This document shows positions 2,495 through 61,062 of a stretch of 64,000 nt of DNA, in pieces. The stretch comes from Minisyncoccota bacterium (lineage in GTDB: Bacteria > Patescibacteriota > Minisyncoccia > Phycocordibacterales > UBA9973). The stretch covers positions 11,282 through 75,281 of the forward strand of contig JBAYHW010000001.1 of the NCBI GenBank assembly GCA_041665925.1, read 5' to 3'. The number at the start of each line of letters is the position of its first letter. Within the stretch, counting starts at the first letter, position 1. The notes beneath the pieces were generated by a model, which ran no database searches, was not told the origin of the DNA, and saw only the letters and a list, made by a program, of their open reading frames with translations. The translations under genes were made by a program, and so were the position numbers.

Positions 2495-5260
2495 TTATTC
2501 CATGCTCGTATATCTCGCCATGATTTCAGCTTCCACTTCGGCGCGGTCGCGACCATATTTTACATACGAAAGTTCTTTCAAGCTATCTACATTCTCCATA
2601 TTTCCTTTTTCTGGAGCGAGGGTATGCAAGTTAAAGGGTTTAGTTGGCTGGCCTTTGACTAGCATCGTCACATACGCATTATAGTTATCAAGTTTGGTTA
2701 TATCATGCGCAGTAAATTGTGGCTTAAATTTTGGTTCCAAGAATGTAGCGTCTTCTGTGCCCACACGGAACACAGCCATGGATCCGACGTTACCGAACAC
2801 GGCATTTTTAATATTTTCTTCCAACTGGGTAATGTACTGATGCGCAATATTGAGAGAGAGACGATATTTACGAGCCTCGGACAAAATAGAAGCGATAGAT
2901 TCTGTGGTCACGTTTTGGAATTCGTCAATGTAGAGATAGAAATCATTCATCGGCTTGCCGAACATGTCTACTCGGGAAAGTGCCGCCATTTGAATCTTCC
3001 CCACCAAAACAAGTCCAATCAAATTTGCATTTATGTCCCCGAGTCTACCTTTAGAAAGATTTACTAAAAGAATTTTCTTCTCGTCCATTATTTTTCTAAA
3101 ATTGAAAACAGAATTCTGCTGAAGCACCACCGGGCGCATAATGTCGTTTGAAATAAAGTTATCGAACTTGGAAGAAATATAAGGCACGAAGTTTGCAAGC
3201 GATTGGTCCCCTGTCGTCTGCTCTGCTGAAACCCAGAATTGTTTAATGATCGGATTCTTACATCTTGCAAGCTTCATATCTCGAAATTCTTTATCTCCCA
3301 AGACCCGAGTAATCTCAAGAAGCGTGGACCCAGACTCTGGGTCTTCCATAACCAGAAAGGCGCTATTTCTGAAGTATTGCTCAAACATCGCTCCGCCTCC
3401 GACTTTCATATCAAAAAGTTTATTAAAAATTCCCATCATTTCATTTACTACGAAAGTCTTCTGTTCTGGATATTTCGGATCATACTCTAGCATGTTGAGC
3501 CCCATAGGTCGCGCAGTATATGCTGGATCAAAATATATAACATCATCTATGCGCTCCTTTGGAATACGAGACAGGATAGTCTGGATGTCTGTGCCGTGTG
3601 GGTCTATATAACAGCAACCATCCCCATTCCTGATGTCCTGTGTAATCATATTGAGCATGATATTTGTCTTACCTGTTCCAGTCTGACCTATTACATACAT
3701 ATGTCGCATACGGTCCTCGCGAGCCATATGAATCTCTGTATCCCGACCTCTATAACTATTAACCCCGAGGATTATGCCTTCCTGCCCCATCTCAATAGGC
3801 GCCGGAGCGATGCCTGCTTTTGCTTCTTTCAATTGTGGCTGACTGCCTATGCCTACTGGAAAGTGAAAGACTGAAGAGAGTTCTTTCAGATTTAGCGGTA
3901 AGATTTTATCGTGTGAAAATGTGCGGTAAGAAAAATCATGGAAAAGCTTTTTTAGATCTCCTCCAGTCGCTTGTTCAAAAAGAAAAGAATTACTAGCCGC
4001 TTCAGAAAATTGGTTGAAAGAAGACTCTATTTCTTTCAAAATTGCCTCAGCACGTTCTTTCGTTTCCCCAGAAGCAATAATTCTAATATTGGCTTTCATA
4101 ATTGTGCTTTTTATTTTATTCCCTATTTTTTCTGCTGCACCTTCATCTACCGCCCGCCTACCTTTTATATATTTCTCTTTTTTATCTTCTTCGGTTTTTT
4201 CATGCCCGAAGATAAGGTCTTTTCCGGCTTTCAGAAAGGCTTTATTGAATTTATAGAAATTGTCCGCCGCATGTTTGACTGAGATGCCATCCTTGACGTC
4301 GTCTAAAATCAAATGAAATTCGTTGATAAACTTGTCTCCGGCTGGAGCAACAACAATCTGGATAGCCGCTCCTTCTCCTGAAGTTTTCAACTTAGAGAAA
4401 ACATTTAAAATTGGATTCATCGGGTCATGCTCGATGTTGTCGTAAGTTTTTATAGGTAAGACAGAACGTTGTGTAAAAGAAGCGTATGCGCCGACAGACC
4501 CTCCATTTTCGTTAAAAATATTATAGTCATCCGTAACTTCGCGAATCTTAGCATTATGGTAAAAAGCTAAAACTTGTTTTTCAAAAAGAGATAGGTGCTT
4601 GTTTGGAATAGCTGCATACACGACGACTTGATCGCTTTGATTTCCTAAAGCTACCTCAAGAACAAAGTAATTTTCTTTTTCGTTGTATTTCCCCTCTCCA
4701 ATAGACTGCATCCCAGCATAAAATTGCTCCATGGCTCCTATGAACTCTTTAAACCCTTTAGACTTATCTGCTTCATCTGTAGGAGGTGGAAGCGTAATTT
4801 CAAACAGAGTCATGTTGAGAGCTTTATAAACAGGTGTGCCTTCTTTAAAATCAAGCCCTATCTGACCAGTCTTCAAATATTGAATTAAAATACGGTGAAA
4901 GTCGTCTTCGATATGCGGACTCCCCATCGCTTGCACAACCGAGAGAGCGTTTCGGACACCTTTGGTTATCACGATACCCAGAAGCTCTTCCATGACGTTA
5001 TCGTGAGATTCGGGCTTAAGCGCGAGCACAATACCTTCAGCTTGTTGTTCTCCTATTACTCTATCTGGGTGAACCAGATTTTCAGCTGGTATTTTTTTAT
5101 ATTCACCTATGACATCGCGAGTAGCGTGCTCGCTTGCATGTTCTACGTGTCCGATTTTAATTAGTTGCTCTTCGCGAGCCTTCACGTGAGCACGTAAATA
5201 GTCTAGCTCCTCTTCTGGGCTTTTAAACTTCGGCATCTCTTTAAAGAATGTCGGGTTCAT
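2495..5260 (-). CDS. VirD4/TraG-like (AAA_10/DUF87-type) P-loop ATPase, ~480-aa unknown N-terminal region, no TM helices
   Basis: Walker A 'VIGQTGTGKTN', Walker B 'LYIDEFQN', coupling-protein-like 'HQYITQLEE..FGN'. Confidence 0.55.
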   Translation of the reverse strand: MNPTFFKEMPKFKSPEEELDYLRAHVKAREEQLIKIGHVEHASEHATRDVIGEYKKIPAENLVHPDRVIGEQQAEGIVLALKPESHDNVMEELLGIVITKGVRNALSVVQAMGSPHIEDDFHRILIQYLKTGQIGLDFKEGTPVYKALNMTLFEITLPPPTDEADKSKGFKEFIGAMEQFYAGMQSIGEGKYNEKENYFVLEVALGNQSDQVVVYAAIPNKHLSLFEKQVLAFYHNAKIREVTDDYNIFNENGGSVGAYASFTQRSVLPIKTYDNIEHDPMNPILNVFSKLKTSGEGAAIQIVVAPAGDKFINEFHLILDDVKDGISVKHAADNFYKFNKAFLKAGKDLIFGHEKTEEDKKEKYIKGRRAVDEGAAEKIGNKIKSTIMKANIRIIASGETKERAEAILKEIESSFNQFSEAASNSFLFEQATGGDLKKLFHDFSYRTFSHDKILPLNLKELSSVFHFPVGIGSQPQLKEAKAGIAPAPIEMGQEGIILGVNSYRGRDTEIHMAREDRMRHMYVIGQTGTGKTNIMLNMITQDIRNGDGCCYIDPHGTDIQTILSRIPKERIDDVIYFDPAYTARPMGLNMLEYDPKYPEQKTFVVNEMMGIFNKLFDMKVGGGAMFEQYFRNSAFLVMEDPESGSTLLEITRVLGDKEFRDMKLARCKNPIIKQFWVSAEQTTGDQSLANFVPYISSKFDNFISNDIMRPVVLQQNSVFNFRKIMDEKKILLVNLSKGRLGDINANLIGLVLVGKIQMAALSRVDMFGKPMNDFYLYIDEFQNVTTESIASILSEARKYRLSLNIAHQYITQLEENIKNAVFGNVGSMAVFRVGTEDATFLEPKFKPQFTAHDITKLDNYNAYVTMLVKGQPTKPFNLHTLAPEKGNMENVDSLKELSYVKYGRDRAEVEAEIMARYTSME

Positions 5261-49062: not shown

Positions 49063-51303
49063 TTAAATAAGACTATAGACCGCTTTGATGAATTCGGCAG
49101 ACCAACGATATATGTTGTAGTTCTTGATCGACTCTCTCATTTTTTTCATTCGGTTCTTTTGTTCAGAAAGTGGCATATTCAGTGCAAAATTAATAGCTTT
49201 AGATGTTTCTTCAGCGCTATATGGATTTACTACAAGTGCCCCCTTGATATCGCGCACAGCCCCGGTAAATCTGCTTAAAATCAGTACTCCTAGTTCATCA
49301 TCGCGAGCTGCAACATATTCTTTAGCCACAAGATTCATGCCGTCGTGCAGAGATGTAACCATGCAGACATCTGCTACCCTAAATAGAACCCCAAGCTCAT
49401 CGTGAGAATAGTGTTCTTTAACCAACACAATTGGTTCCCAGTTCTTTGTTTGAAATTTTGTATTAATACGCTCTGCTTCTTTGCTGACTTCTTCGCTAAA
49501 CTCTCTATATTTCGGTACGTTTTCACGACTCGGAGAAGCAATTTGAAGAAATGTAAAGTTTCCCTTGTAACTTGGATATGTGTCTAGAAAAAATTCCACA
49601 GCTTTGAAGCGTTCCAATAGCCCTTTGGTGTATTCCATGCGATCCACCCCAAGACCAATGTATTTGGAGCGTATGCCGAGTTTTTCGAGCTTCTTTTTAC
49701 CTTCACTATGGCTGTATTTTGTGTCGTTGCTACCACCAGAAAAATCTATACTTATGGGAAAAGATTTAACATAGCTTGTGTGTCCTTTGTAAGTTATCGA
49801 AAATTGTTCTAAGTCACTCAAAGATTCAAGCTCCTTGCTTACAGTATTTATAAAATTATTACAATATTGCTGGATATGAAATCCAATTATATCTGCTCCG
49901 AGCATGCCTTGTAATATCTCCTTTCGCCATGGACAAACACTAAAGGTTTCTGGTTCAGGCCAAGGAATATGCCAAAATATACCTATTTGTGCATCTGGCC
50001 TGCTTTTTTTTATCATCGCAGGCAGTAACGCAAGATGGTAATCCTGTATTAGAATTAGGGGATTTTGTATATTCTTCACCTCCTCAAGCACGCTTTTTGC
50101 AAAAACCCCATTAACTTTATTAAATTGCTCCCAGTCTTCTTGTCTGAAAATTGGTCTTGTGTGCACCATGTGGCATAGTGGCCAAAGAGCTTCACTAGAA
50201 AACCCTTGATAATATCCTTCTTCTTCTGCTTTTGAAAGCCACACCCTTTTAAGAGTGTATTTTGGTTCAAGCGGCGGGACTTGTATTTTCTGATCTTTGT
50301 CCACAGTCTCCTTGTCAGCATTTCCACTTCCCCAGGCAATCCATGTACCATTACACGCCTTCATGACTGCTTCAATTGCTGTAACTACACCACCAGCCGG
50401 CACCCTAAAATTAATTTTCCCTTTTGAAGTATAGTGTTCATAAGGTTCACGATTAGAGACTACAAAAATTGGCCTGTTTTTTAAAGAAGCTTTAATAAAT
50501 TCAGACAAGCGTTCTGAGGTCCAAGGACTATCAATTTTCTCTAGACGCATACGTGCCTCTTCCTGTGCAGAAACTCTCGCCTGAGATAGGCTCTTGCTCA
50601 TGTGGGTAATCTCCGTAGCAAGCGGAGAGAAAAAGGAATATTTATCTTTGTAGTTAAAATCTCCCTTGTTTTCGCCTGAACGTAATTTTTTTACCGATTC
50701 CACTAAACGAACAACCTGCTGTAATACAAAAAATCTCAGCACAAAAAAGATTGTGATGGAGAAAAGTATTATTTGTGTAAATAGTCGCAGTAAGCTATTT
50801 CTCCATATCTGAGCAATTCCTGTATCAATGTATCCGGCATTTTGCACAATCATCAATGCCCCCACAACACTATCACCATTATGTAGTGGGTCAATTCTTA
50901 CATATCTTTTTTCACCTTCTGCATCGAAAAAATCACTTTTTTTATTATTACCATCCATTACATCTGCAACTATCTGTGGGTTTTCTATTATACTTTTAGG
51001 TAATCCATCAGAACTTGCAATTAAAATCCCTTTATTGTCATAAAGAGCAAGACCAGCCAGACGTTCACGATTTGCAAATTTCTCTACAATTTTTTGTATA
51101 GAGTTATAGAAAGAAGATTGGGTGTTATTAGCATAATATGGTTCAACGGATTCCTTTAGGCTGTCCGATAAAAGAGAGGCCCGCTGTTCTAGGTTGGTTT
51201 GAAGTGTGGCCTCTTCTTGATTTACTTGTTTAAAGGTAAATCCTAGTGAAACCAAGCTTACCGCCAGAGCAACAATCCCTATAATGGCAAATATATACTT
51301 CAT
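49063..51303 (-). CDS. otsA: trehalose-6-phosphate synthase (GT20) fused to an N-terminal two-TM extracytoplasmic sensor-like domain and linker
   Basis: GT20 'IGIFWHIPWPEPETF', 'IGFHIQQYCNNF'; N-terminal 270 aa with TM-loop-TM. Confidence 0.75.
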   Translation of the reverse strand: MKYIFAIIGIVALAVSLVSLGFTFKQVNQEEATLQTNLEQRASLLSDSLKESVEPYYANNTQSSFYNSIQKIVEKFANRERLAGLALYDNKGILIASSDGLPKSIIENPQIVADVMDGNNKKSDFFDAEGEKRYVRIDPLHNGDSVVGALMIVQNAGYIDTGIAQIWRNSLLRLFTQIILFSITIFFVLRFFVLQQVVRLVESVKKLRSGENKGDFNYKDKYSFFSPLATEITHMSKSLSQARVSAQEEARMRLEKIDSPWTSERLSEFIKASLKNRPIFVVSNREPYEHYTSKGKINFRVPAGGVVTAIEAVMKACNGTWIAWGSGNADKETVDKDQKIQVPPLEPKYTLKRVWLSKAEEEGYYQGFSSEALWPLCHMVHTRPIFRQEDWEQFNKVNGVFAKSVLEEVKNIQNPLILIQDYHLALLPAMIKKSRPDAQIGIFWHIPWPEPETFSVCPWRKEILQGMLGADIIGFHIQQYCNNFINTVSKELESLSDLEQFSITYKGHTSYVKSFPISIDFSGGSNDTKYSHSEGKKKLEKLGIRSKYIGLGVDRMEYTKGLLERFKAVEFFLDTYPSYKGNFTFLQIASPSRENVPKYREFSEEVSKEAERINTKFQTKNWEPIVLVKEHYSHDELGVLFRVADVCMVTSLHDGMNLVAKEYVAARDDELGVLILSRFTGAVRDIKGALVVNPYSAEETSKAINFALNMPLSEQKNRMKKMRESIKNYNIYRWSAEFIKAVYSLI

Positions 51304-51365
51304 AAGTAAACTCTACCGAATATATATACACAGGTCAAGAAACTCAATACAAAAAATTCTTTTTT

Positions 51366-51439
51366 GGGTGCCTACAGGGATTCGAACCCTGACTAAGAGC
51401 TCCACAAGCTCTAGTGCTAACCATTACACCATAGGCACC
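51366..51439 (-). tRNA. tRNA-His (GTG), with encoded G-1 and C73
   Basis: cloverleaf GGTGCCTATGGTGTAATGGTTAGCAC..TTGTGGA..GGGTTCGAATCCCTGTAGGCACCC. Confidence 0.8.
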
Positions 51440-51477
51440 ATGTACTCTAATCTAACAGAAAAAGAAGCGCTTGCCAA

Positions 51478-54084
51478 TTAATTATGGCGAGCTTTTCTTC
51501 TCATTATGTATTTAGCCCCTTCTACTAGAAGAATATTTAAGATCAGCCAAAGTATAATTATAGGTGCTGAATACAAAGGTAGGGGAGAAAGCATAAATAT
51601 TTCTCGCATAAAAGGCAACCCCATGGTTAGCACTAAGAGCGCCACTCCCGCCAGTATACTCCAATTTAATTTTGTATTCGAAAAAATTTTATAAGAAAAA
51701 ATTGGTAAATGTAAACTGCGAAAAGAAAAAGCTATGACAAGTATATAAGAAGAAAAACAAACAAAAAATATTGACCTAACAACCGCCATGTCGAGACCGA
51801 CCTTCAGCATTACGTAATACAGAAGAAAAAGTAGTAACGAACTCAGCACCCCTATGCCAAACGTCAGCAATTTTACTTCCTTGGAGAAAATTAGCGTCAA
51901 TTCTTTTCCCTTAAATCGCTCTCCATCAATATCTTCATCAAAAGCAAAAGCTAGTGCTGGTAAAGACCCGGTAAAAAGATTAACCCATATAATCTGAAGT
52001 GCTGTCAGTGGTAATGGTAAATAAAAAATTAAACTTCCCCCAATTATAAATACCTCATCAAGCGAGTTCGACATAAGATACACAAATGTTTTCCGAATAT
52101 TTCCTAAAATTTTCCGTCCTTCATCTATTGCCAGACTTATCGTTTCAAAATTGTCATCGAGCAATACTAAATCTGCCGCACTCTTAGCCACATCACTGCC
52201 AGAACCTAGGGAAATTCCAATATCCATTGCCTTTAGGGCCGGTGCATCGTTCACCCCATCTCCAGTCATGGCCACCACCTCGCCTAGTTTTTGATAAAGT
52301 TGCCCAATGCGCAATTTATCTTCTGGGGTTACCCGAGCAAAAATTTTAATTTTTGGAATTATTGCTATTAATTCCGCATCAGAAAAAGTTCTCACATCTC
52401 CTCCGGTCAAGACTTCATCTTCTTTAACATGCCAATCCAAATCTTTCGCCACAGAAAACGCCGTCCCCACCAAATCGCCTGTAACTAAAACCATTTTTAT
52501 CCCATGAGACTCAATGTTTTTTATAGCCTTTGGAACCTCGGGCCTTATTGGATCAACAAACGTAAACATCCCTAAAAATTCTACACTTTCCACTTCTGAT
52601 AATGAAAATTCCTTTTTATTATGTTTCTTGTCCACCCTTCCTATTCCTATTATTCTCTTGCCTTCTCTACTTTCTTTTTCAATCCAATCTTCAATCTTCA
52701 AATATTCTTCTTTAGACAGATTGGATTTTTTTAAAAGAATATCCGGTGCGCCCATTAATATGTATGTTTTATCTTTTTCAGCAACTGAAAATTTATTAGT
52801 GGAATTAAATGGTAAAACCAAATGAGAAACAGAAGAAGATAAGAAGTGTAAAGGGACGTTGTGTGTACGACAGGCTTTCACAATATTAACTTCAAATGGT
52901 CGACCCTTAAAAGACCATTTCATTTTATCTTCGTTGGGGTTTTCTACAGACACATCCACATTAAGTAGCGCCAGCTCAAGAAGAGATTTCTGTTCATTTG
53001 AAAATCCTTCTTCTTTTAAAGAAACCCGCGCATTAAGAATGTGGTGTGTGCCATAAATACCGGTAAGACGCATATCGGCCAAAGTTAAGGTTCCCGTTTT
53101 GTCGGTCATAATTAAAGTGGTAGAACCGAGAGTTTCTGCGGCAGTAAGTTTCCTTACAACTCCTCTTTTTTGAGCTATTCGCAAAGACCCAATAGCTAAA
53201 ATTACAGTCAGAGCTATCGGCAATGATTCCGGCACAGCACCTACTGCTACTGCAGATGAGAGCAACAACATTTCAAAAAATGGTTCTCCTCGAAGGATCC
53301 CAAGAATAAGAATGCAAGCTACAACCACAACAACCACCAAGAATATAAGCCAGGCAAGTCTATCAACTCCTTTTTGAAGTGGGGTTTTGGTTTTATTCGT
53401 TTCCGAAACTATCCCCGCGATTTGTCCTATTTCGGTATCGTTACCCGTGGCACACACCACGGCAATAGCATACCCCTGCACCACAAGCGTTCCTGCGTGA
53501 GCAATATTTTTTCTTTCTGCCACGAGGGCACTGAGATTTACCGGCTCTTCATTCTTTTCAACTGGTAGTGCCTCTCCGGTAAGTATGGCTTCGTCTACTT
53601 GAAAATTATTAACAGATATTATTCTGGCATCAGCGGGAATACGAGCACCATAAGAGAGTTTTAAAACATCTCCAGGCACCACCATCTCAGAATCTATTTC
53701 TTGTTCTAATCCTCCACGAATTACTCTCGCCCTGTCCTTGATATAAGTTTTGAGTTTGTCGAGGGTGTTTTCTGCATTATATTCATGAAAAAATCCCAAG
53801 GCTACATTTAGTATAACCACAAACAACACCACCCACATATCCAACCATTCTTGAAGAATGGCAGTCAGCACCACTGAACCCAGAAGTAGAAATATTAAAG
53901 GACTTAAGAATTGTTTTAAAAATAAAATTACCGGATTGGTTTTACCCCTACCGTGAAAAACATTTTTCCCATATTTAGATAAGCGCGTTTCTGCTTCTTG
54001 GTCAGTAAGTCCTTGTGCCGACGTCTTTAATTGGTCAAATATTTCAGCGGAAGATAAAGACCATGATTGTTTTATGATTTGCAT
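51478..54084 (-). CDS. P-type cation-transporting ATPase (P2-type, Ca2+/Mg2+-like)
   Basis: 'DKTGTLT', 'TGDLVGTA', 'GDGVNDAPAL', 10 TMs. Confidence 0.85.
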   Translation of the reverse strand: MQIIKQSWSLSSAEIFDQLKTSAQGLTDQEAETRLSKYGKNVFHGRGKTNPVILFLKQFLSPLIFLLLGSVVLTAILQEWLDMWVVLFVVILNVALGFFHEYNAENTLDKLKTYIKDRARVIRGGLEQEIDSEMVVPGDVLKLSYGARIPADARIISVNNFQVDEAILTGEALPVEKNEEPVNLSALVAERKNIAHAGTLVVQGYAIAVVCATGNDTEIGQIAGIVSETNKTKTPLQKGVDRLAWLIFLVVVVVVACILILGILRGEPFFEMLLLSSAVAVGAVPESLPIALTVILAIGSLRIAQKRGVVRKLTAAETLGSTTLIMTDKTGTLTLADMRLTGIYGTHHILNARVSLKEEGFSNEQKSLLELALLNVDVSVENPNEDKMKWSFKGRPFEVNIVKACRTHNVPLHFLSSSVSHLVLPFNSTNKFSVAEKDKTYILMGAPDILLKKSNLSKEEYLKIEDWIEKESREGKRIIGIGRVDKKHNKKEFSLSEVESVEFLGMFTFVDPIRPEVPKAIKNIESHGIKMVLVTGDLVGTAFSVAKDLDWHVKEDEVLTGGDVRTFSDAELIAIIPKIKIFARVTPEDKLRIGQLYQKLGEVVAMTGDGVNDAPALKAMDIGISLGSGSDVAKSAADLVLLDDNFETISLAIDEGRKILGNIRKTFVYLMSNSLDEVFIIGGSLIFYLPLPLTALQIIWVNLFTGSLPALAFAFDEDIDGERFKGKELTLIFSKEVKLLTFGIGVLSSLLLFLLYYVMLKVGLDMAVVRSIFFVCFSSYILVIAFSFRSLHLPIFSYKIFSNTKLNWSILAGVALLVLTMGLPFMREIFMLSPLPLYSAPIIILWLILNILLVEGAKYIMRRKARHN

Positions 54085-54111
54085 TGATTGAATGCATTAT
54101 AGCAATATATC

Positions 54112-54498
54112 TCACTCTTTCAAATCAAGACAGACAGAATTTAAACAATATCTTTTTTTAGTTTCTGTGGGGCCATCATTAAACACGTGCCCGAGATGAG
54201 AGCCACAATTCGAGCAGGCAACTTCTGTTCGCTGCATTCCATGACTATTATCTTCAGTTTCTTTTACTGCTCTAGGAAGAGCTTTATCAAATGAAGGCCA
54301 GCCAGTCCCAGAATCAAACTTTGTGTCTGAAGGAAAAAGCATATTACCACAAACCACACAAGCATAAGTACCTTGACGCTTTTCGTGTAAATATTTCCCA
54401 CTCCCGGGTGACTCTGTTCCCTTCTCACGTAATACGTGATATTGCTCTGGCGTAAGTTTCTTTTTTAATTCTTCTTCATTTGGAGTATTCATATTCAT
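54112..54498 (-). CDS. msrB: peptide methionine-(R)-sulfoxide reductase MsrB
   Basis: CxxC pairs plus '[10 protein letters not shown]'. Confidence 0.85.
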
Positions 54499-54582
54499 GG
54501 TGCGCAGAGGGGGACTTGAACCCCCAAGGATTACTCCATACGAACCTCAATCGTACGCGTATACCAGTTCCGCCACCTGCGC
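54498..54582 (-). tRNA. tRNA-Leu (GAG), long variable arm
   Basis: GCGCAGGTGGCGGAACTGG...TTGAGGT...GGGGGTTCAAGTCCCCCTCTGCGCACCA. Confidence 0.8.
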
Positions 54583-55254
54583 ATAGTTTTTCTGTTGTTT
54601 CTTCTCAATTTGTAAAACTTTTTGTATTTTCAACTTTTTGCGAGACAAGCAAACAACTTTTTGATTGTAATACATTTTCTTGATAATTTCCAGCGCTTCT
54701 CTTTTTGCATATCTAAGACCATAAATCGAACCTTTAGTTTTTGACTTAGAAATATGACCTTTTATTCGTAATTTATTAAAAATTTCTTCACGAAGCCAAA
54801 AAATATGCTTTGAGCTGGCTGAGTTAAAAGTTAAATAAAACATATAACTAGATCGCCAACGTGGATCCCAATAAGAATAGAAGGATCCATCCCCGTCAAA
54901 ACTCCCACGCAAAAAATCAAAAAAATATTTATCTGGTATTGCTAGTCTCCCAATGGTTAATGATTTTTTAGGAGTCAATCCAATTGATAAAAGAAAATCA
55001 TAAAATATTCTATTTTTGAATTGAATTCTTAGACACCCATCCCCTTTACTGTTCCATTTATTACCTATAGTAAAATTCACATATAGGCATTTAGAAAAAT
55101 TTAACAACTGCTCCCTGTCTTTTGAAGTTAGGTCGATCAATAAGCCCCCATTTGAGAGATATCCATCTGTGGCAATTAAACCTACAGCATAAGCTAAGTT
55201 GGGTCTCCATTTTGTATCTATTATTTTTTTTGGTTGTGGTCCCCTCTTTCCCAT
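54547..55254 (-). CDS. LAGLIDADG homing endonuclease (two-motif, single-chain); last 12 codons overlap the tRNA-Leu 5' end
   Basis: '[14 protein letters not shown]' and '[11 protein letters not shown]'. Confidence 0.7.
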
Positions 55255-55310
55255 ACCTATATTATATCACCTCAAGGTGATAGCGTCTACCAATTATTAT
55301 TAAAACAAAA

Positions 55311-55328
55311 ACCCACTTTTGTGGGGTT
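55311..55328. terminator. intrinsic terminator (acccac-tttt-gtgggg) after rplS
   Basis: hairpin plus T-tract. Confidence 0.5.
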
Positions 55329-55346
55329 ATGTTTTTCTTTGTTTAT

Positions 55347-55757
55347 TTATTCTGTTACTTTTTCTTCTACCTCTGGAGTTTCGTTTTCTAACGTAACTGA
55401 ACGCATTTTTCGGCGAACATCTTTCACCGCCTTGGTGCGAATGTAGTAAAGTTTACTCCTGCGAGCTCGAGCTCTTTTTGTGATTTCAATTTTTCCTATC
55501 ATTGGAGAGTAAAGTGGGAAAATTCTTTCCACGCCCACACCAGAAGCTACCTTGCGAACTGTAAAAGTCGCACCTGCTTCTGTCCCGTGCTTACGAGCGA
55601 GAACAATTCCTTCAAAGGCCTGCAGACGATACTTGCCTTTTTCATCAAGAATCTTTGAAGATACGTTTATGGTGTCTCCTGCCTTGAAATCAAGCTTTTT
55701 TCGCTCCTCAAGATCTACTGGACTAAATTTAATTTTGTTGATTTTATTTCCTGCCAT
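55347..55757 (-). CDS. rplS: 50S ribosomal protein L19
   Basis: L19 sequence. Confidence 0.9.
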   Translation of the reverse strand: MAGNKINKIKFSPVDLEERKKLDFKAGDTINVSSKILDEKGKYRLQAFEGIVLARKHGTEAGATFTVRKVASGVGVERIFPLYSPMIGKIEITKRARARRSKLYYIRTKAVKDVRRKMRSVTLENETPEVEEKVTE

Positions 55758-55796
55758 AGTTGATTTAATCTAACATATAGAATGTTTTTTTGCAAT

Positions 55797-57500
55797 TTAT
55801 ATGAATTCCTGCTGATAACATTTGACACAATACACTATCTCCGGCCTCTCTGGCGCATAGGGAGTATAAATAGGAGCTTCGCATTTCGCGCAAGTTCTGT
55901 GATACATACCAGGTTTGTTTTCTCTGGCAAATCTTTCATTTTCTCGACATTTTGGACACTCGTGAGGAAGAGGTAAATTCATTTTACGCAAAAGTTCCAG
56001 TTCTCCTGGGATAATTTTATAACTACGTTTGCAGTTGATGCATTCAATAATTTCTTGCAAAATTGAATCTGTTGTCTCTTTAATTGTTTGAGGCAAAATT
56101 TCTGATTTTATTGTAGATGATACATTTGGATTCTCTGTATCATCCCAATCATACCCTTGCGATATTGCTTCTTCTCTAGTTTTTGGCAAAAATCGCATTG
56201 CGTTTGATTTATTATATGGAAAGTTGCCAAACCCCAAAGAAAAAAACTCTCCATAACTCCACACCCTACCTAATTTATCCACTAAGGGATTTTTCTTCAT
56301 ATCTTCTATAATATCTTTTTTTAATTTCTCATAATCTTCCTTTGAATATTGCTTATTTAAAATACAGTAATTTTTGTGTTTTAAATTCACGCAGCCAAAA
56401 TTATTTTTCCCAGAAATTGACCAATGAGAGTATTCTGTATTCAAGGCATCGGGAAAACTATGGGAAGTGAACTTGCAATTACTGGCTCCATCCCCTGTTT
56501 GTGAACACTCATATAAAAGTTCTGCTATATTCCCCCAGCCAGTATAATCCATACAGTCTTTGGATCCGTCCACTGTTATAAGTTGACACCATTTACAATT
56601 CTCTGCGCCATTTAAGATATAACACTCCTTAGAGTTCTTTGATGTATATACATACTCGCCCGTGACATTTAAATTAAAGGAGTGCCCATGATACTCGCGA
56701 TAAGGACGAGTAAGCCAAAACTTACTAGATTCTCTCTCAAACTTCTTGATCCCAGATGAAGTATCTAACCTCATTTCTTTTAATTTTTTCTCATATTCTT
56801 CTTTAGAATACTGAACATTAAAGATACAATGTTTTGCCCCACGTAAATTTACACACCCTATACAGTCAGTACAACCATAGCAATTACGAGAAAACCAAAC
56901 ATCCACACAATCGTCACATTCTTCAGAGAAGAAAACTCTATAGCCTCTAATAAAACTTCGGGACCCATAACATAATTCTGACTTCCAGCCTCGAATACAA
57001 TCTGAACTCCATTTCAGGGTATTTAAAATTGAAGAATAATATACATTTTCACAAAAATCTGCCCAGATAGTCATAAAACAGTTTTTGGAATACGCGATCG
57101 AATTTGAATATTCACAATTTTTTAAAGTAGTGTAAGTACTCTCCAGAGAAGAATACGGGGTTTTCGTCGCAAGTTCTTTTACTTGTTCTAAAAAAGACCT
57201 TGAGGGGTCATAGTCCATAGCGTACTCTGTACCGTCCCAATCATCCGCCCACCAACAAGGCTGACAATACACAGTCAATTCCTTTTCTGGTGAAAACATA
57301 GATAACATCTTTTTCTCACACTTATTACAATTACGCCAAAATGGAGACCAACTGTTATCGACAGATAGTCTCCTAGCCATCCGGCACTCTGGGCACCAGG
57401 TGGGCGGCGGGACGGAAATTTTTTCGTAATAATTAAAATCTTCAGGTTCTATCGTGAATTCTTTTTTGCAGCTCTGGCAAGATTTTGTTTTCGCTTCCAT
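55797..57500 (-). CDS. Cys/Trp-rich 567-aa protein with terminal zinc-ribbon-like modules and an internal duplicated module; function unknown
   Basis: N- and C-terminal 'CxxCK[KR]x[FY]xIxP..[FL]..[YL]..K[IM].[VL]P.P..CPxCR'; internal 'GCVNL[RK]..K[HN][CY]CI[FL]N[VK]QYSKE[ED]YEK' twice. Confidence 0.4.
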   Translation of the reverse strand: MEAKTKSCQSCKKEFTIEPEDFNYYEKISVPPPTWCPECRMARRLSVDNSWSPFWRNCNKCEKKMLSMFSPEKELTVYCQPCWWADDWDGTEYAMDYDPSRSFLEQVKELATKTPYSSLESTYTTLKNCEYSNSIAYSKNCFMTIWADFCENVYYSSILNTLKWSSDCIRGWKSELCYGSRSFIRGYRVFFSEECDDCVDVWFSRNCYGCTDCIGCVNLRGAKHCIFNVQYSKEEYEKKLKEMRLDTSSGIKKFERESSKFWLTRPYREYHGHSFNLNVTGEYVYTSKNSKECYILNGAENCKWCQLITVDGSKDCMDYTGWGNIAELLYECSQTGDGASNCKFTSHSFPDALNTEYSHWSISGKNNFGCVNLKHKNYCILNKQYSKEDYEKLKKDIIEDMKKNPLVDKLGRVWSYGEFFSLGFGNFPYNKSNAMRFLPKTREEAISQGYDWDDTENPNVSSTIKSEILPQTIKETTDSILQEIIECINCKRSYKIIPGELELLRKMNLPLPHECPKCRENERFARENKPGMYHRTCAKCEAPIYTPYAPERPEIVYCVKCYQQEFI

Positions 57501-57504
57501 GGTT

Positions 57505-58296
57505 TTATTTTACTATCTTTTCAAATTCTTTAGGAATCTTAGATTCTACTTTGACCACATTCCCTTTCAAATCTTTAAATTCAATAGATCTAGCATGGAG
57601 AGCCATACGTTTTAAGCCTTTTGGGCAAGGGTTGTCTGGGTTGTAGAGTTCATCACACACAACAGGATGATTTATGTATTTCATGTGCACCCGAATCTGG
57701 TGTGTTCGTCCTGTTTTCGGCCGAACTTCTACAAAGGTATATTTAATGGGTGGAGCCTCGTAAAATTTCTTATTCGTGCCGGAGCCCTTTAGGGTAAAGC
57801 GAGAAGAAATTTTACGAAGCGAACCTTCTTCAAATCTTTTTAAAACTCTATATTCAGTAATAGCCTCTCGCATTTCTCCACGTGCCCCGCGACCAGCTAA
57901 GTATCTGCGGAAATCTTTCGGGCTTCGTCCTATTGGTTTATTTATTACTCCTCTTTCGTTTTTTACATTCCCAGAAACAATAGCCACATATATTTTTCTA
58001 ATTTCTCTATTCTGGAATTGTTGTTTCAAAAATTGATAAGCTTTTTCATTTTTAGCTAAAACCAGAACTCCGGAAGTGTCTCTATCCAGGCGATGTACAA
58101 TACCTGGCTTTTTTATTTCTATTTTTCTATTTTTATATTCATAGACTTCGTCCTCCCCCACATTTTTCATTCTTGGATAATTTTTCAATATCCAGTCAGT
58201 AAGTGTTTTTTCTTTAGTTCGTCCATCGGCATGCACAGCAATACCTGACGGTTTGTCTATAACTAAAATATTAGAATCCTCATATAAGATTTTCAT
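57505..58296 (-). CDS. RluA-family pseudouridine synthase
   Basis: 'HRLDRDTSGVLVLAKN'. Confidence 0.8.
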   Translation of the reverse strand: MKILYEDSNILVIDKPSGIAVHADGRTKEKTLTDWILKNYPRMKNVGEDEVYEYKNRKIEIKKPGIVHRLDRDTSGVLVLAKNEKAYQFLKQQFQNREIRKIYVAIVSGNVKNERGVINKPIGRSPKDFRRYLAGRGARGEMREAITEYRVLKRFEEGSLRKISSRFTLKGSGTNKKFYEAPPIKYTFVEVRPKTGRTHQIRVHMKYINHPVVCDELYNPDNPCPKGLKRMALHARSIEFKDLKGNVVKVESKIPKEFEKIVK

Positions 58297-58329
58297 TTTG
58301 GTCGTAAATATTTTTCTGCTGAAAAATTT

Positions 58330-58355
58330 CGCGACCCGCTCCTCGCGCCGTCGCG
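58330..58355 (-). terminator. GC hairpin (CGCGAC-n14-GTCGCG) plus short U-tract downstream of the tRNA pair, tentative
   Basis: local GC-rich patch in an AT-rich spacer. Confidence 0.25.
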
Positions 58356-58383
58356 CTGCGGACTCACAAAACTTTCAGTTTTG

Positions 58384-58455
58384 TGCCCTTGGTAGGAATC
58401 GAACCTACATCAAGGCCTTAGAAGAGCCTCGTTCTATCCATTGAACTACAAGGGC
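58384..58455 (-). tRNA. tRNA-Arg (TCT)
   Basis: GCCCTTGTAGTTCAATGGATAGAAC..CTTCTAA..GGTTCGATTCCTACCAAGGGCA. Confidence 0.8.
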
Positions 58456-58480
58456 AATTACTAATAACGGATAGACTGTG

Positions 58481-58553
58481 TGCGCGGTAAGGGACTCGAA
58501 CCCCTGACCTTCCCGGTGTAAACGGGTTGCTCTACCAACTGAGCTAACCGCGC
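58481..58553 (-). tRNA. tRNA-Val (TAC)
   Basis: GCGCGGTTAGCTCAGTTGGTAGAGC..TTTACAC..GGGGTTCGAGTCCCTTACCGCGCA. Confidence 0.8.
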
Positions 58554-58577
58554 AAATACTTACTTAAAGTAGCACTT

Positions 58578-58886
58578 TTACAGCGAAGGGTCAACGACAG
58601 GAGCTGGAAAATTTAAAATTTGATTTGATTTTTTTTCTCTTTCGGAAAAATAATTTAAGATTTTTTCTAAACCATCTTTTTTTATTATCAGTGTTTTTCT
58701 ACTTTCATTGAGATTTAATATCGCACCTTCTTGGTTGGTTTGCTTGAAAAGTCGATAACCGAAAACACCCGACAATATAATAATGATCAAGGCTAGAGTA
58801 GTCGCAATTTTCCAGTAAAGATTTGCATTAAAAACAAATTCTTTTTTCGTAAAATGCTTTTCTTTTTTAAAAAGTTGTATTTTCAT
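58578..58886 (-). CDS. small membrane protein in the pilus cluster (hypothetical)
   Basis: one TM; position downstream of pilO-like. Confidence 0.3.
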   Translation of the reverse strand: MKIQLFKKEKHFTKKEFVFNANLYWKIATTLALIIIILSGVFGYRLFKQTNQEGAILNLNESRKTLIIKKDGLEKILNYFSEREKKSNQILNFPAPVVDPSL

Positions 58887-58889
58887 TTT

Positions 58890-59414
58890 TTATAAGACGA
58901 AACTTAAAAGTTGTATTCTAAAAACAGCTTCCCAGCTTACTCCCCCTTTTTCCTCCACACTATTTCTGCGAATATCTAATGACAGAAAATTGAGTTCATA
59001 GGGTGAATTCTCTAAAAGCATTAAAAATTTATAAAGCGAAGCAAAGCTCCCCGAAGCTTTCAGCCCCACCACAAGCCCCACCCCGGTAGATAGCATATCC
59101 ACTGAACTCACTTCTGCCTTAGCCCCCACCCTAGTTGCTAATTGTTCAATGGTATCTAGGAACGGCACCACATCAGAACTCTTGGCAAAGTGAGTATCTA
59201 GTAATGCTTTATCTGGGGCAATTCTTAGAAGCGTTTGGTCAAGTGTTCGTATTTCGTTACGCCTATCTGTTTCGGTTTGCCACGCAACTCTTCCTTCGTT
59301 GGCTTTTCGATTATTGTCATTGATTAATTTATAAAGCATTAAAAAAGCACTCAATACAATGATGAAAAATACCGCGGAAGTAATTAATGGAATTTTTTGA
59401 AAATTATTTTTCAT
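58890..59414 (-). CDS. pilO: type IV pilus assembly protein PilO-like
   Basis: N-terminal TM plus coiled coil, position after pilN. Confidence 0.45.
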   Translation of the reverse strand: MKNNFQKIPLITSAVFFIIVLSAFLMLYKLINDNNRKANEGRVAWQTETDRRNEIRTLDQTLLRIAPDKALLDTHFAKSSDVVPFLDTIEQLATRVGAKAEVSSVDMLSTGVGLVVGLKASGSFASLYKFLMLLENSPYELNFLSLDIRRNSVEEKGGVSWEAVFRIQLLSFVL

Positions 59415-59415
59415 A

Positions 59416-59958
59416 TTATGCTGGAACTATACTTAAATAAAATTGAATATCCGCGCCTTTTACGAAGTTAGATATCGGCAAATCAACACTTTTAAAGCTT
59501 GCGCTTTTTTCTAGTGCTTGTCGGAAAAGTAGTAAAACTTCACGCGAAGGAGCCGTCCCGGTAATCTTGATTTTTCTTCCTCCGGTAGGGCCTTGTTCAT
59601 AGAAAATTTGGGTCAATTTGATATCGGCCCGCTTCTCCAAAAGGATGGCATTAATAACCTGTGAAGATGGTATAAATTTATCTTTCCTGGCGTTTTCAAT
59701 TAAATCAATTTTATTATTGATGTCTTTGACAGCCAATAAGGATTGCTCGCCCAGAACTGGAAGCGGTTCATTTTTTTGATTTTCTAATTGCGTATCAACA
59801 AAAGTGTCATTAACAGAAGAAGAAAAATATGCAGGAAGTAAGGAGATAGCCGCCACTAAAATACAAAAATTTAGCACCCCTATAAACAGTACGAAGAGTC
59901 TGAGGTAGAAACCCCTCGTCATTTTTTTCTTTTCTTCTTTTGGAATTAAATTAATCAT
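59416..59958 (-). CDS. pilN: type IV pilus assembly protein PilN
   Basis: N-terminus 'MINLIPKEEKK' plus TM. Confidence 0.55.
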   Translation of the reverse strand: MINLIPKEEKKKMTRGFYLRLFVLFIGVLNFCILVAAISLLPAYFSSSVNDTFVDTQLENQKNEPLPVLGEQSLLAVKDINNKIDLIENARKDKFIPSSQVINAILLEKRADIKLTQIFYEQGPTGGRKIKITGTAPSREVLLLFRQALEKSASFKSVDLPISNFVKGADIQFYLSIVPA

Positions 59959-59970
59959 TAAAAAATTTTC

Positions 59971-61062
59971 TTAATTAGCCTGATCTCCCAAAGCAAGCCC
60001 TAGCGCCGTAGAAAATGCTAAGGCTTGACGAAAACTCATATCAGGAATATAGCTCCCGGTGTTTACTATGTTAACCCACACGTTTGCCATCTCTACTGGA
60101 ATCTTCATACTAACAGAAATGTAATCTGCCAATCCTATCAAATTTGAATCCCCACCACAGAAAATAATTTTTTGAATCAGTGGATTATTTTTTCCTTCTT
60201 CGTCTTTGTGCGTATTCCAGTATAAAAAGTGTTTAGATATCTCATCTCGCAAAACAGAAACACTGTTCAAAAGTATAGAGAATATCTCCTGGTTGGCGCT
60301 ATTGCGCTGAAGTCCATATTCGTGTTTCATTTTATCTGCTTCTTCAAAGCTAATATTAAAGCTTTTCTGTATAGCTTGGGTAAGCATTATTCCTCCCAGA
60401 TCCAAGGTGGAAGTAAACATAACAATCCCACCAGAAACAATAAAAATACCGGTGCGTTTTTTACCAAAATCTACAACCATGTAAGTTCCTTTATCCCCCG
60501 CCTGAACCACAGCCCGACAAGTCGCCTGAGCTTCTAATTCACAAGACTTAACTTCTAGGTCTGAATGCTTAAATATGAGTAAGTAATTTTCAATTATATT
60601 TTTTGTAATTGTAGCTACTTGAACTTCTATACTTTGAGCATCTTCTTTTACTAAATCATAGTCGAAAATTGCATCCTCAGCTTTTATCGGCACATGTTCT
60701 TCTAAAGCAAGCTCTATACCTTCGCGAACATTTTTTAGCCCTGCTTTTTCTAGTCGCAATTGAAACAAATATACCTGCTCCTCTGGTAAAGAAACTCTTA
60801 CAGATCTGACTCCTTCTTCTTTTCGCAAAAGAGTTAGAATCTCTTCCATCTTTTTGGAGTTTTTGATTTTCCCTGACTCAATAACTCCAGGGGGGATAAC
60901 CCGTTCCCCATGTCTACCAACCCTAATTCCGTTTTTGGTTGCAATAAGTTCTATAAATTTTAGTGATTCATCGGAAATATCCAAGCCGAATGAGGGTGCT
61001 GAAAAAAACTTAGGAGGAGGAAAAATCCTAAAAAAGAATTTATCGAAAGAATCCATCAACAT
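59971..61062 (-). CDS. pilM: type IV pilus assembly protein PilM (actin-like ATPase fold)
   Basis: 'FGLDISDESLKFIEL', 'IIFCGGDSNLIGL'. Confidence 0.7.
   Translation of the reverse strand: MLMDSFDKFFFRIFPPPKFFSAPSFGLDISDESLKFIELIATKNGIRVGRHGERVIPPGVIESGKIKNSKKMEEILTLLRKEEGVRSVRVSLPEEQVYLFQLRLEKAGLKNVREGIELALEEHVPIKAEDAIFDYDLVKEDAQSIEVQVATITKNIIENYLLIFKHSDLEVKSCELEAQATCRAVVQAGDKGTYMVVDFGKKRTGIFIVSGGIVMFTSTLDLGGIMLTQAIQKSFNISFEEADKMKHEYGLQRNSANQEIFSILLNSVSVLRDEISKHFLYWNTHKDEEGKNNPLIQKIIFCGGDSNLIGLADYISVSMKIPVEMANVWVNIVNTGSYIPDMSFRQALAFSTALGLALGDQAN

Follow-up and report, generated by a model that had tools for sequence, protein, structure and literature searches.

According to the portions used here of a study of rRNA genes in the candidate phyla radiation (CPR), LAGLIDADG homing endonucleases of these bacteria are encoded in insertion sequences and group I introns (Tsurumaki et al., J Bacteriol 2024, PMC11270868). 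Bacterial tRNA genes also harbor group I introns with homing endonucleases (mSystems 2026, PMC13011429); in the parts of that paper drawn on here, the enzymes in Patescibacteria are of the HNH type, LAGLIDADG enzymes appear only in cyanobacterial tRNA-Arg, and tRNA group I introns of Patescibacteria rarely encode an endonuclease at all. Here we analyze a LAGLIDADG open reading frame (ORF) immediately before a tRNA-Leu(GAG) gene in a 64,000-nt stretch of a Minisyncoccota bacterium (assembly GCA_041665925.1, contig JBAYHW010000001.1, positions 11,282 to 75,281), referred to as the window. Sequence comparisons make it probable, at roughly 0.78, that the ORF is a functional, free-standing homing endonuclease gene (HEG) in a site-specific mobile cassette of the class Paceibacteria (Patescibacteria/CPR). 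The cassette would consist of a promoter made from a tRNA fragment, the endonuclease ORF, and a complete tRNA-Leu(GAG) directly after it.

An earlier reading of the nucleotide sequence alone (the sequence-only reading) had proposed an ORF with two LAGLIDADG motifs between rplS and tRNA-Leu on the same strand. Such an ORF is present, and the acidic residue of each motif is kept. It is a LAGLIDADG protein, as judged by Pfam, by a sequence match in the PDB, and by structure prediction. The profile search agreed with the earlier family assignment through a marginal match to Pfam LAGLIDADG_3 (24.0 bits, cutoff 22.5), and no NCBIfam model matched the ORF. A phmmer search of the PDB returned I-Tsp061I (2dch, E 7e-6). 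The AlphaFold2 (AF2) model has a predicted local distance difference test (pLDDT) score of 82 and a predicted template modelling (pTM) score of 0.80, and consists of two alpha-beta-beta-alpha-beta-beta-alpha halves with helices and strands in the expected order. Foldseek matched this model to I-Tsp061I (E 1.5e-10) and more weakly to I-AniI, I-SceI, I-DmoI and intein endonucleases; the top 50 matches all have the LAGLIDADG fold, comprising homing endonucleases, engineered variants, endonuclease-containing inteins, the bI3 maturase and WhiA. Motif 2 of the window ORF reads LRGSFDGD122G. The loss of catalytic acidic residues that the sequence-only reading had named as a possible sign of a pseudogene did not appear, since D30 and D122 are invariant across 23 homologues; both are conserved at a level of at least 97% in 73 loci. 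Unlike WhiA-like regulators, the ORF has no helix-turn-helix (HTH) domain detectable with Pfam. Two conserved regions flank the core. The N-terminal arm MGKRGPxPK (residues 1–12, with G5, P6 and P8 invariant) has low pLDDT and lies outside the LAGLIDADG core, and a basic C-terminal helix (residues 200–224) has invariant L203, R205 and K206, a nearly invariant C202, and a conserved QQ..Y. Both may provide extra DNA contacts.

The protein belongs to a large family that is tied to one tRNA gene. A protein database search yielded 3,529 relatives (protein clusters), almost all labelled hypothetical or unnamed. The best 120 of these are 69–91% identical and 207–238 aa long (nearly all 223–229 aa), and the named sources among them are Paceibacterota, Nomurabacteria or Parcubacteria. 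When genomes were taken one per species, 380 species encoded a relative, which places the family in at least 380 Paceibacteria species. Viral contigs in IMG/VR held only distant relatives (at most 38% identity), so that a phage origin is unsupported. Two sets of loci were compared, one of 80 loci picked through the endonuclease itself and a separate sample picked by rplS alone. In 77–78 of the 80 fetched loci the ORF is preceded by rplS and followed by a same-strand tRNA-Leu(GAG), and nearly all loci examined, whether occupied or empty, have rplS on the upstream side. The cassette has a single home, at the 5' edge of tRNA-Leu(GAG) and in most cases downstream of rplS. L080 (3871–4733) has a tRNA-Val in the place of rplS, followed by promoter block, ORF and tRNA-Leu(GAG), which ties the cassette to the tRNA and not to rplS. 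Several metagenome-assembled genomes with a Paceibacteria-type locus, L001, L005 and L080 among them, are titled Burkholderiales, Gammaproteobacteria or Saccharibacteria, and are probably mislabelled or contaminated bins.

Presence of the gene is patchy. The metagenome sample selected by rplS contained 48 clean empty loci (∼79%), 9 occupied loci (∼15%) and 4 footprint loci. In the clean empty loci rplS is followed, often after a terminator and/or a TGnTATAAT promoter, by the tRNA 2–164 nt on, with no ORF between them; a single such locus has a longer rplS-to-tRNA distance of 554 nt. The four window neighbors nearest in the rplS alignment (L095, L091, L082 and L137, 91–94% identical) are all empty. 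The footprint loci (L143, L145, L152 and L153) keep the last 10–33 codons of the ORF, ending in CLSRKRLKIVKMLAIVGEQL and the stop codon, directly 5' of the tRNA. L153, L143 and L145 retain just the last 10–14 codons. In L152 codons ∼26–186 are gone, leaving traces of the N-terminus and residues 187–220, and both L152 and L153 also retain the upstream promoter block. The coexistence of empty, intact and decayed versions of a single site is the hallmark of the cycle that homing endonuclease genes go through. Both the mobility of the gene and the empty site that the sequence-only reading expected in related genomes, with tRNA-Leu directly after rplS, were thereby borne out in most relatives. A fixed, vertically inherited rplS-HEG-tRNA synteny, as for a domesticated gene, was also considered and rejected; it was a product of selection bias in the endonuclease-chosen loci and was overturned by the rplS-based sample. 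An exact-protein look-up of the window rplS returned only the window's own contig.

A separate conserved element of ∼76 nt (GCCCCCGATCGCC...GGATTGGGGGCAAA..CAAAG.AGTTTG.TTT) occupies the same promoter-to-tRNA slot in empty loci L087, L103, L108, L116, L134 and L136, with a diverged copy in L098; in the L116 spacer it lies 104 nt before the tRNA start at 3043. It has a predicted fold of -31 kcal/mol (z = -3.8) and no Rfam family match, and could be a small RNA of a new type or a miniature insertion.

The tRNA alleles differ between empty and occupied sites. A uniform allele, the E-type tRNA-Leu(GAG) (GACGTACTACCTTGAGGTGGTAGC), is present at most empty sites (30 of the 48 clean empties) and at none of the 12 loci in that rplS-based sample that are occupied or retain a footprint (Fisher p = 1.2e-4). 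Among all occupied loci it was found in 2 of 86. Occupied loci instead carry a wide variety of other tRNA-Leu(GAG) sequences that are well formed, and how similar these are to one another bears no relation to rplS. Arrival of the ORF is accompanied by replacement of the resident tRNA allele. The window tRNA is a "type A" allele, foreign to its rplS neighborhood, and is most likely part of the mobile cassette. A classification of the tRNAs into two types (A/B) was tried and dropped as too simple, as clustering gave a continuum in which only the E-type is sharply defined.

A trace of the E-type tRNA is found upstream of the ORF. The consensus before the start codon, AATT[A/G]GTAGACGCTAT..CCTTGAGGTGATATAAT-N6-ATG, is common to 62 of 77 occupied loci. 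The window block matches the E-type consensus at 24 of 28 positions with one gap, over tRNA positions 13–40, from the D-loop to the 3' side of the anticodon loop. Mean local alignment score of the block is 15.4, versus 6.0 for shuffled sequences, and in 71 of 77 loci the block is nearer to the E-type than to the tRNA of its own locus. It is absent from clean empty sites. The block gives rise to a predicted promoter with a -35 element TAGACG, a 17-nt spacer and an extended -10 element TGATATAAT (TG-A-TATAAT), in all 10 of 12 matches. The -10 hexamer stands exactly 6 nt before the ATG in the window and in 53 of the 77 loci. With this spacing the expected transcription start is the A of the ATG, and the mRNA is probably leaderless. 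Empty sites have a similar extended -10 only 7–9 nt before tRNA position +1; the ORF therefore fills the slot between promoter and tRNA. ORF and tRNA probably share one transcript, from which RNase P would free the tRNA. A weak candidate for an internal tRNA promoter (9 of 12 matches) is located in the 3' end of the ORF at 54692..54664.

The ORF is under purifying selection while its phylogeny conflicts with that of the host as represented by rplS. The ratio of nonsynonymous to synonymous divergence (dN/dS) is 0.06–0.13, similar to that of rplS, except in the mosaic pair L012/L033 (0.27). Conflict is seen in both directions. L051 and L054 have rplS genes 99% identical and endonucleases 64% identical, and L012, L030 and L033 combine 99% identity in rplS with 73–75% in the endonuclease. 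Conversely, L015 and L038 are 55% identical in rplS and 83% in the endonuclease, and discordant pairs of this kind range over 50–55% for rplS and 80–83% for the endonuclease. Between L012 and L033, identity is 95–100% from rplS through the spacer to nucleotide 170 of the ORF, next 80–85%, and 47–70% from the 3' third of the ORF to the tRNA 3' end, after which it returns to 98%; synonymous divergence (dS) is 0.68 in the HEG versus 0.10 in rplS. Quarters of the protein differ in their nearest relatives, which indicates, on the aligned sequences, intragenic recombination. A close counterpart of the window locus is L161, a second contig from the same sample with 86% DNA identity over 3 kb. For this pair dS is 0.44 in the ORF, 1.23 in rplS and 1.08 in the zinc-finger gene upstream of it; the cassette is therefore younger than its carrier genomes. 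A recent invasion, one of the options in the sequence-only reading, does not describe the family, which is old and widespread in Paceibacteria. For the window itself the dS of 0.44 against 1.1–1.2 in the flanks is consistent with a fairly recent transfer.

The ORF tail runs into the tRNA gene. The sequence-only reading had the overlap in the right place, in the first 36 nt of the tRNA, and counted it as 12 codons, where it consists of 11 sense codons and a stop. The stop is the UGA formed by U33-G34-A35 in the anticodon loop. Any GAG anticodon supplies this triplet, and an ORF that enters the tRNA in the right frame always stops there. In the window the Tyr codon that closes the conserved QQKxY motif directly abuts G1 of the tRNA, the usual stop codon and spacer being absent. 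L161 has the identical ORF/tRNA junction (the same tail occurs in P0001 and L161), and the overlap is therefore not an assembly artefact. With ORF ends corrected in 78 loci, the stop typically lies 0–12 nt before tRNA position +1, with a mode of 1 nt, and overlaps of 15, 21–22, 35–36 or 44 nt occur in 12 of the 78, having arisen independently in other lineages. The window overlap is a minority variant of an always very tight ORF/tRNA junction and not a functionally meaningful fusion, although the sequence-only reading spoke of the HEG as fused to a tRNA. The tRNA is otherwise intact, as claimed; ARAGORN and Rfam (50.7 bits) both call a complete tRNA. Comparison of the overlapped form between the window and L161 gives a dN/dS of 0.12 over 224 codons, and this purifying selection argues that it is not a pseudogene. 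In annotation, such overlaps should be taken neither as fusions nor as gene-calling errors.

Taken together, a tRNA-directed endonuclease, also among the options of the sequence-only reading, is the best reading of the locus. The enzyme would cut alleles lacking the HEG, either inside the E-type tRNA-Leu(GAG) gene that resides there or on the 5' edge of this gene. Repair from an occupied allele would copy in the promoter block, the ORF and the donor tRNA, and the latter would restore an intact, presumably uncleavable tRNA-Leu gene. The retained piece of tRNA extends to position 40, and the founding break therefore probably fell within the anticodon arm of a tRNA gene of the E-type. Transcription of ORF and tRNA would start at the tRNA-derived promoter and yield one leaderless precursor, which RNase P would split into mRNA and tRNA. 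In the window lineage translation would continue through 33 nt of tRNA sequence before it meets the UGA; cleavage by RNase P would take away the final 11 codons together with the stop, giving a non-stop mRNA and lower endonuclease expression. Full-length protein would then come only from unprocessed precursor, a plausible brake on expression. A tentative extension of this scheme, which we hold to be possible and no better than that, is a tRNA-gene replacement drive. Here the enzyme would cut the anticodon arm of the resident tRNA-Leu(GAG) gene, install a cleavage-resistant allele and keep a fragment of its target as promoter and possibly as an operator for autorepression, with RNase P throttling expression through the abutting or overlapping tRNA.

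Several observations weigh against a mobile cassette of this kind. All sequences are metagenome assemblies, and some of the mosaics could be assembly chimeras. A closer empty/occupied pair than one of ∼76% DNA identity was searched for and not found, and the insertion boundaries are therefore not nucleotide-exact. The occupied loci L003 and L004 bear E-type tRNAs and therefore do not fit a simple model in which the E-type is the target and the linked tRNA is immune. Similarities of endonuclease and tRNA are uncorrelated overall (rho ∼0); the weak correlation in the C-terminal quarter among close genomes (rho 0.34) neither proves nor excludes that the two travel together. The very high conservation of the protein would also fit a role beneficial to the host. 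Such a role is at the center of one alternative, in which a domesticated LAGLIDADG protein, inherited vertically with losses, would act as a DNA- or RNA-binding factor that controls or matures the adjacent tRNA-Leu. Protein identity of 55–91% across a bacterial class, a dN/dS of ∼0.1, as low as in rplS, invariant linkage to one tRNA gene, and a conserved upstream block that resembles a binding site derived from that tRNA would all suit it. We nevertheless consider it improbable, and the domesticated enzyme offered by the sequence-only reading is disfavored with it, since ∼79% of relatives selected by rplS have a compact promoter-tRNA arrangement without the ORF, deletion footprints exist, the phylogeny is discordant with rplS and shows local recombination tracts, synonymous divergence between the window and L161 is below that of the flanking genes, and both catalytic Asp residues are kept, unlike in domesticated proteins of the WhiA type.

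The question of what is targeted leads to another alternative, that insertion is directed at the junction of promoter and tRNA position +1, with the tRNA passively co-converted and the tRNA-like block an unrelated scar kept because it makes a good promoter. The position of the ORF, exactly between a TGnTATAAT -10 and the tRNA in a slot that measures 7–9 nt in empties, speaks for this, as do the different ∼76-nt element found in that slot in at least 7 empty loci and the two occupied loci with E-type tRNAs. We think it possible though less likely, given that the block is clearly an E-type tRNA fragment ending at position 40, hard to explain without a break inside the tRNA gene, and that the ORF hardly ever occurs together with the E-type allele. 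It is also very unlikely that the window copy is a decaying relic, its lost stop and its read-through into the tRNA marking the onset of pseudogenization. The normal stop and spacer are indeed missing, processing by RNase P would give a non-stop mRNA, and degenerate copies exist elsewhere; the window ORF is nonetheless full length and free of frameshifts with all family-invariant residues present, its overlapped form persists under constraint in L161, and overlaps arose independently in ∼12 of 78 loci with otherwise intact ORFs. An origin as part of an intein, or within a group I intron of the tRNA, is extremely unlikely. Patescibacteria tRNA genes often carry group I introns, according to the portions used of PMC13011429, and the closest solved structure is from an rRNA intron. 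Against this, an Rfam scan of positions 50000–60000 at E ≤ 1 gave no group I intron or any other family besides tRNA, the downstream tRNA is complete and uninterrupted, and the ORF has its own start right after a predicted promoter with no surrounding host protein. A mobile homing endonuclease cassette directed at tRNA-Leu(GAG) accordingly remains our preferred reading.

Table 1. Features of the endonuclease locus (window positions)
Feature	Position	Strand	Evidence or remark
rplS (ribosomal protein L19)	55347..55757	minus	Pfam Ribosomal_L19, E 5e-32
Intrinsic rplS terminator	55302..55325 (hairpin 55325-55312, then T run)	minus	stem CCCAC/GTGGG; terminator scan
tRNA-fragment block AATTGGTAGACGCTATCACCTTGAGGTG	55268..55295	minus	match to positions 13–40 of empty-site-type tRNA-Leu(GAG)
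Predicted promoter built from tRNA-fragment block	55261..55289	minus	promoter scan, 10/12 matches + TG
LAGLIDADG ORF, ATG start, 235 aa	54547..55254	minus	ORF call, Pfam, PDB sequence match, AF2 model
LAGLIDADG motif 1	residues 20–33, nt 55156-55197	minus	catalytic D30
LAGLIDADG motif 2	residues 115–125, nt 54880-54912	minus	catalytic D122
ORF tail/tRNA overlap	54547..54582 (36 nt)	minus	11 codons + UGA = tRNA positions 1–36
tRNA-Leu(GAG), CCA encoded	54498..54582	minus	ARAGORN; Rfam tRNA 50.7 bits
msrB	54112-54498	minus	directly 3' of tRNA-Leu(GAG)

On the minus strand the order is rplS, terminator, ORF, tRNA-Leu(GAG) and msrB (Table 1), and a hairpin with T run like that of the window's rplS terminator is visible in most related loci. 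The ATG of msrB and the encoded CCA of tRNA-Leu have one A in common (54498), the final A of the CCA; coding sequence therefore overlaps this tRNA at both ends. Homology between the window and L161 ends exactly at the tRNA 3' end (54498 in the window, 3757 onward in L161). Beyond it the window has msrB and a P-type ATPase before tRNA-His (51478-54498), while L161 has a DAO-like and other genes, and in many empty loci tRNA-His is 4–150 nt from tRNA-Leu. Synteny breaks in the 3' flank of tRNA-Leu, which may be a hotspot for insertions. On the other side, the zinc-finger gene upstream of rplS (55797-57500, minus strand) encodes a Cys-rich protein of 567 aa, whose two ends each match a treble-clef zinc finger with scores under the Pfam cutoffs. 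It is kept 5' of rplS in relatives at 55–69% identity, at times as tandem duplicates (L001, L022).

These findings suggest that homing endonucleases in the genome-reduced Patescibacteria exploit a tRNA gene from outside the RNA, and not just through introns of rRNA and tRNA. They add a large unannotated family (>3,500 protein clusters) of bacterial free-standing LAGLIDADG enzymes, whose compact size (∼225 aa) and candidate target region make them potential meganuclease scaffolds. Swapping of tRNA alleles can mislead inference based on tRNAs or synteny, and would explain the odd diversity of tRNA-Leu; should the replacement drive be true, competition between cassettes over successive rounds would account for the unusually high diversity of tRNA-Leu(GAG) stems in Paceibacteria, which does not follow phylogeny. 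The empty and occupied sites define a natural pair that is directly testable.

Compared with the LAGLIDADG enzymes of CPR rRNA genes, as presented in the portions used of PMC11270868, the present ORF shares the enzyme family, the host phylum and homing into conserved RNA genes. Those systems are located inside 16S and 23S genes, often in introns, whereas the present ORF is free-standing with its own predicted promoter, sits at a tRNA gene, external to the mature RNA, and takes a replacement tRNA gene along; a term search of that paper, within the same limits, found no mention of tRNA. With the tRNA-intron endonucleases, again going by the portions used of PMC13011429, it has in common a tRNA gene as home and the involvement of Patescibacteria. 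Those are encoded in self-splicing introns of the anticodon loop, whereas the present ORF precedes an intact tRNA-Leu(GAG) with no ribozyme detected by Rfam, and a term search of that paper turned up neither the tRNA-Leu(GAG) isoacceptor nor an ORF-before-tRNA arrangement in the text covered. Full-text literature searches found nothing closer than these two studies (PMC11270868, PMC13011429).

At the level of the protein, I-Tsp061I, I-DmoI, I-SceI and I-AniI resemble the present enzyme in the predicted two-domain fold and in one acidic residue per motif. Identity to them is just 13–22%, and the present protein differs from them in a conserved basic N-terminal arm rich in Gly and Pro (MGKRGPxPK) and in a basic helix of some length at the C-terminus (CLSRKRLKIEKAL..QQKKY). 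WhiA and the LAGLIDADG maturases, which share the fold and are among the Foldseek matches (3hyi, 2ab5), are further removed: WhiA has lost the catalytic residues and gained an HTH domain and the maturases are intron-bound, whereas the present protein retains its two catalytic Asp residues and has the presence/absence pattern of a mobile gene. In its behavior the cassette recalls systems of a different make. T4 SegB is a free-standing GIY-YIG endonuclease in a phage tRNA cluster that is inherited preferentially, co-converts neighboring tRNA markers and is patchy among relatives. It matches the present gene in being free-standing, in preferential inheritance with co-conversion of tRNA markers and in patchiness, and differs in its GIY-YIG family, its phage genome and the lack of a tRNA-derived promoter. 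Integrative elements that insert into tRNA genes work through an integrase, bring a duplicate of the tRNA's 3' part and have many genes as cargo; they restore the tRNA and leave a fragment behind. The tRNA target, the restored intact tRNA and the leftover fragment at the site are shared with the present cassette, which would instead rely on a LAGLIDADG nuclease and homologous repair, has a 5'-internal leftover fragment, and carries a single ORF as cargo. By analogy, T4 SegB-like phage endonucleases and tRNA-rebuilding integrative elements appear to be the nearest functional counterparts known to us.

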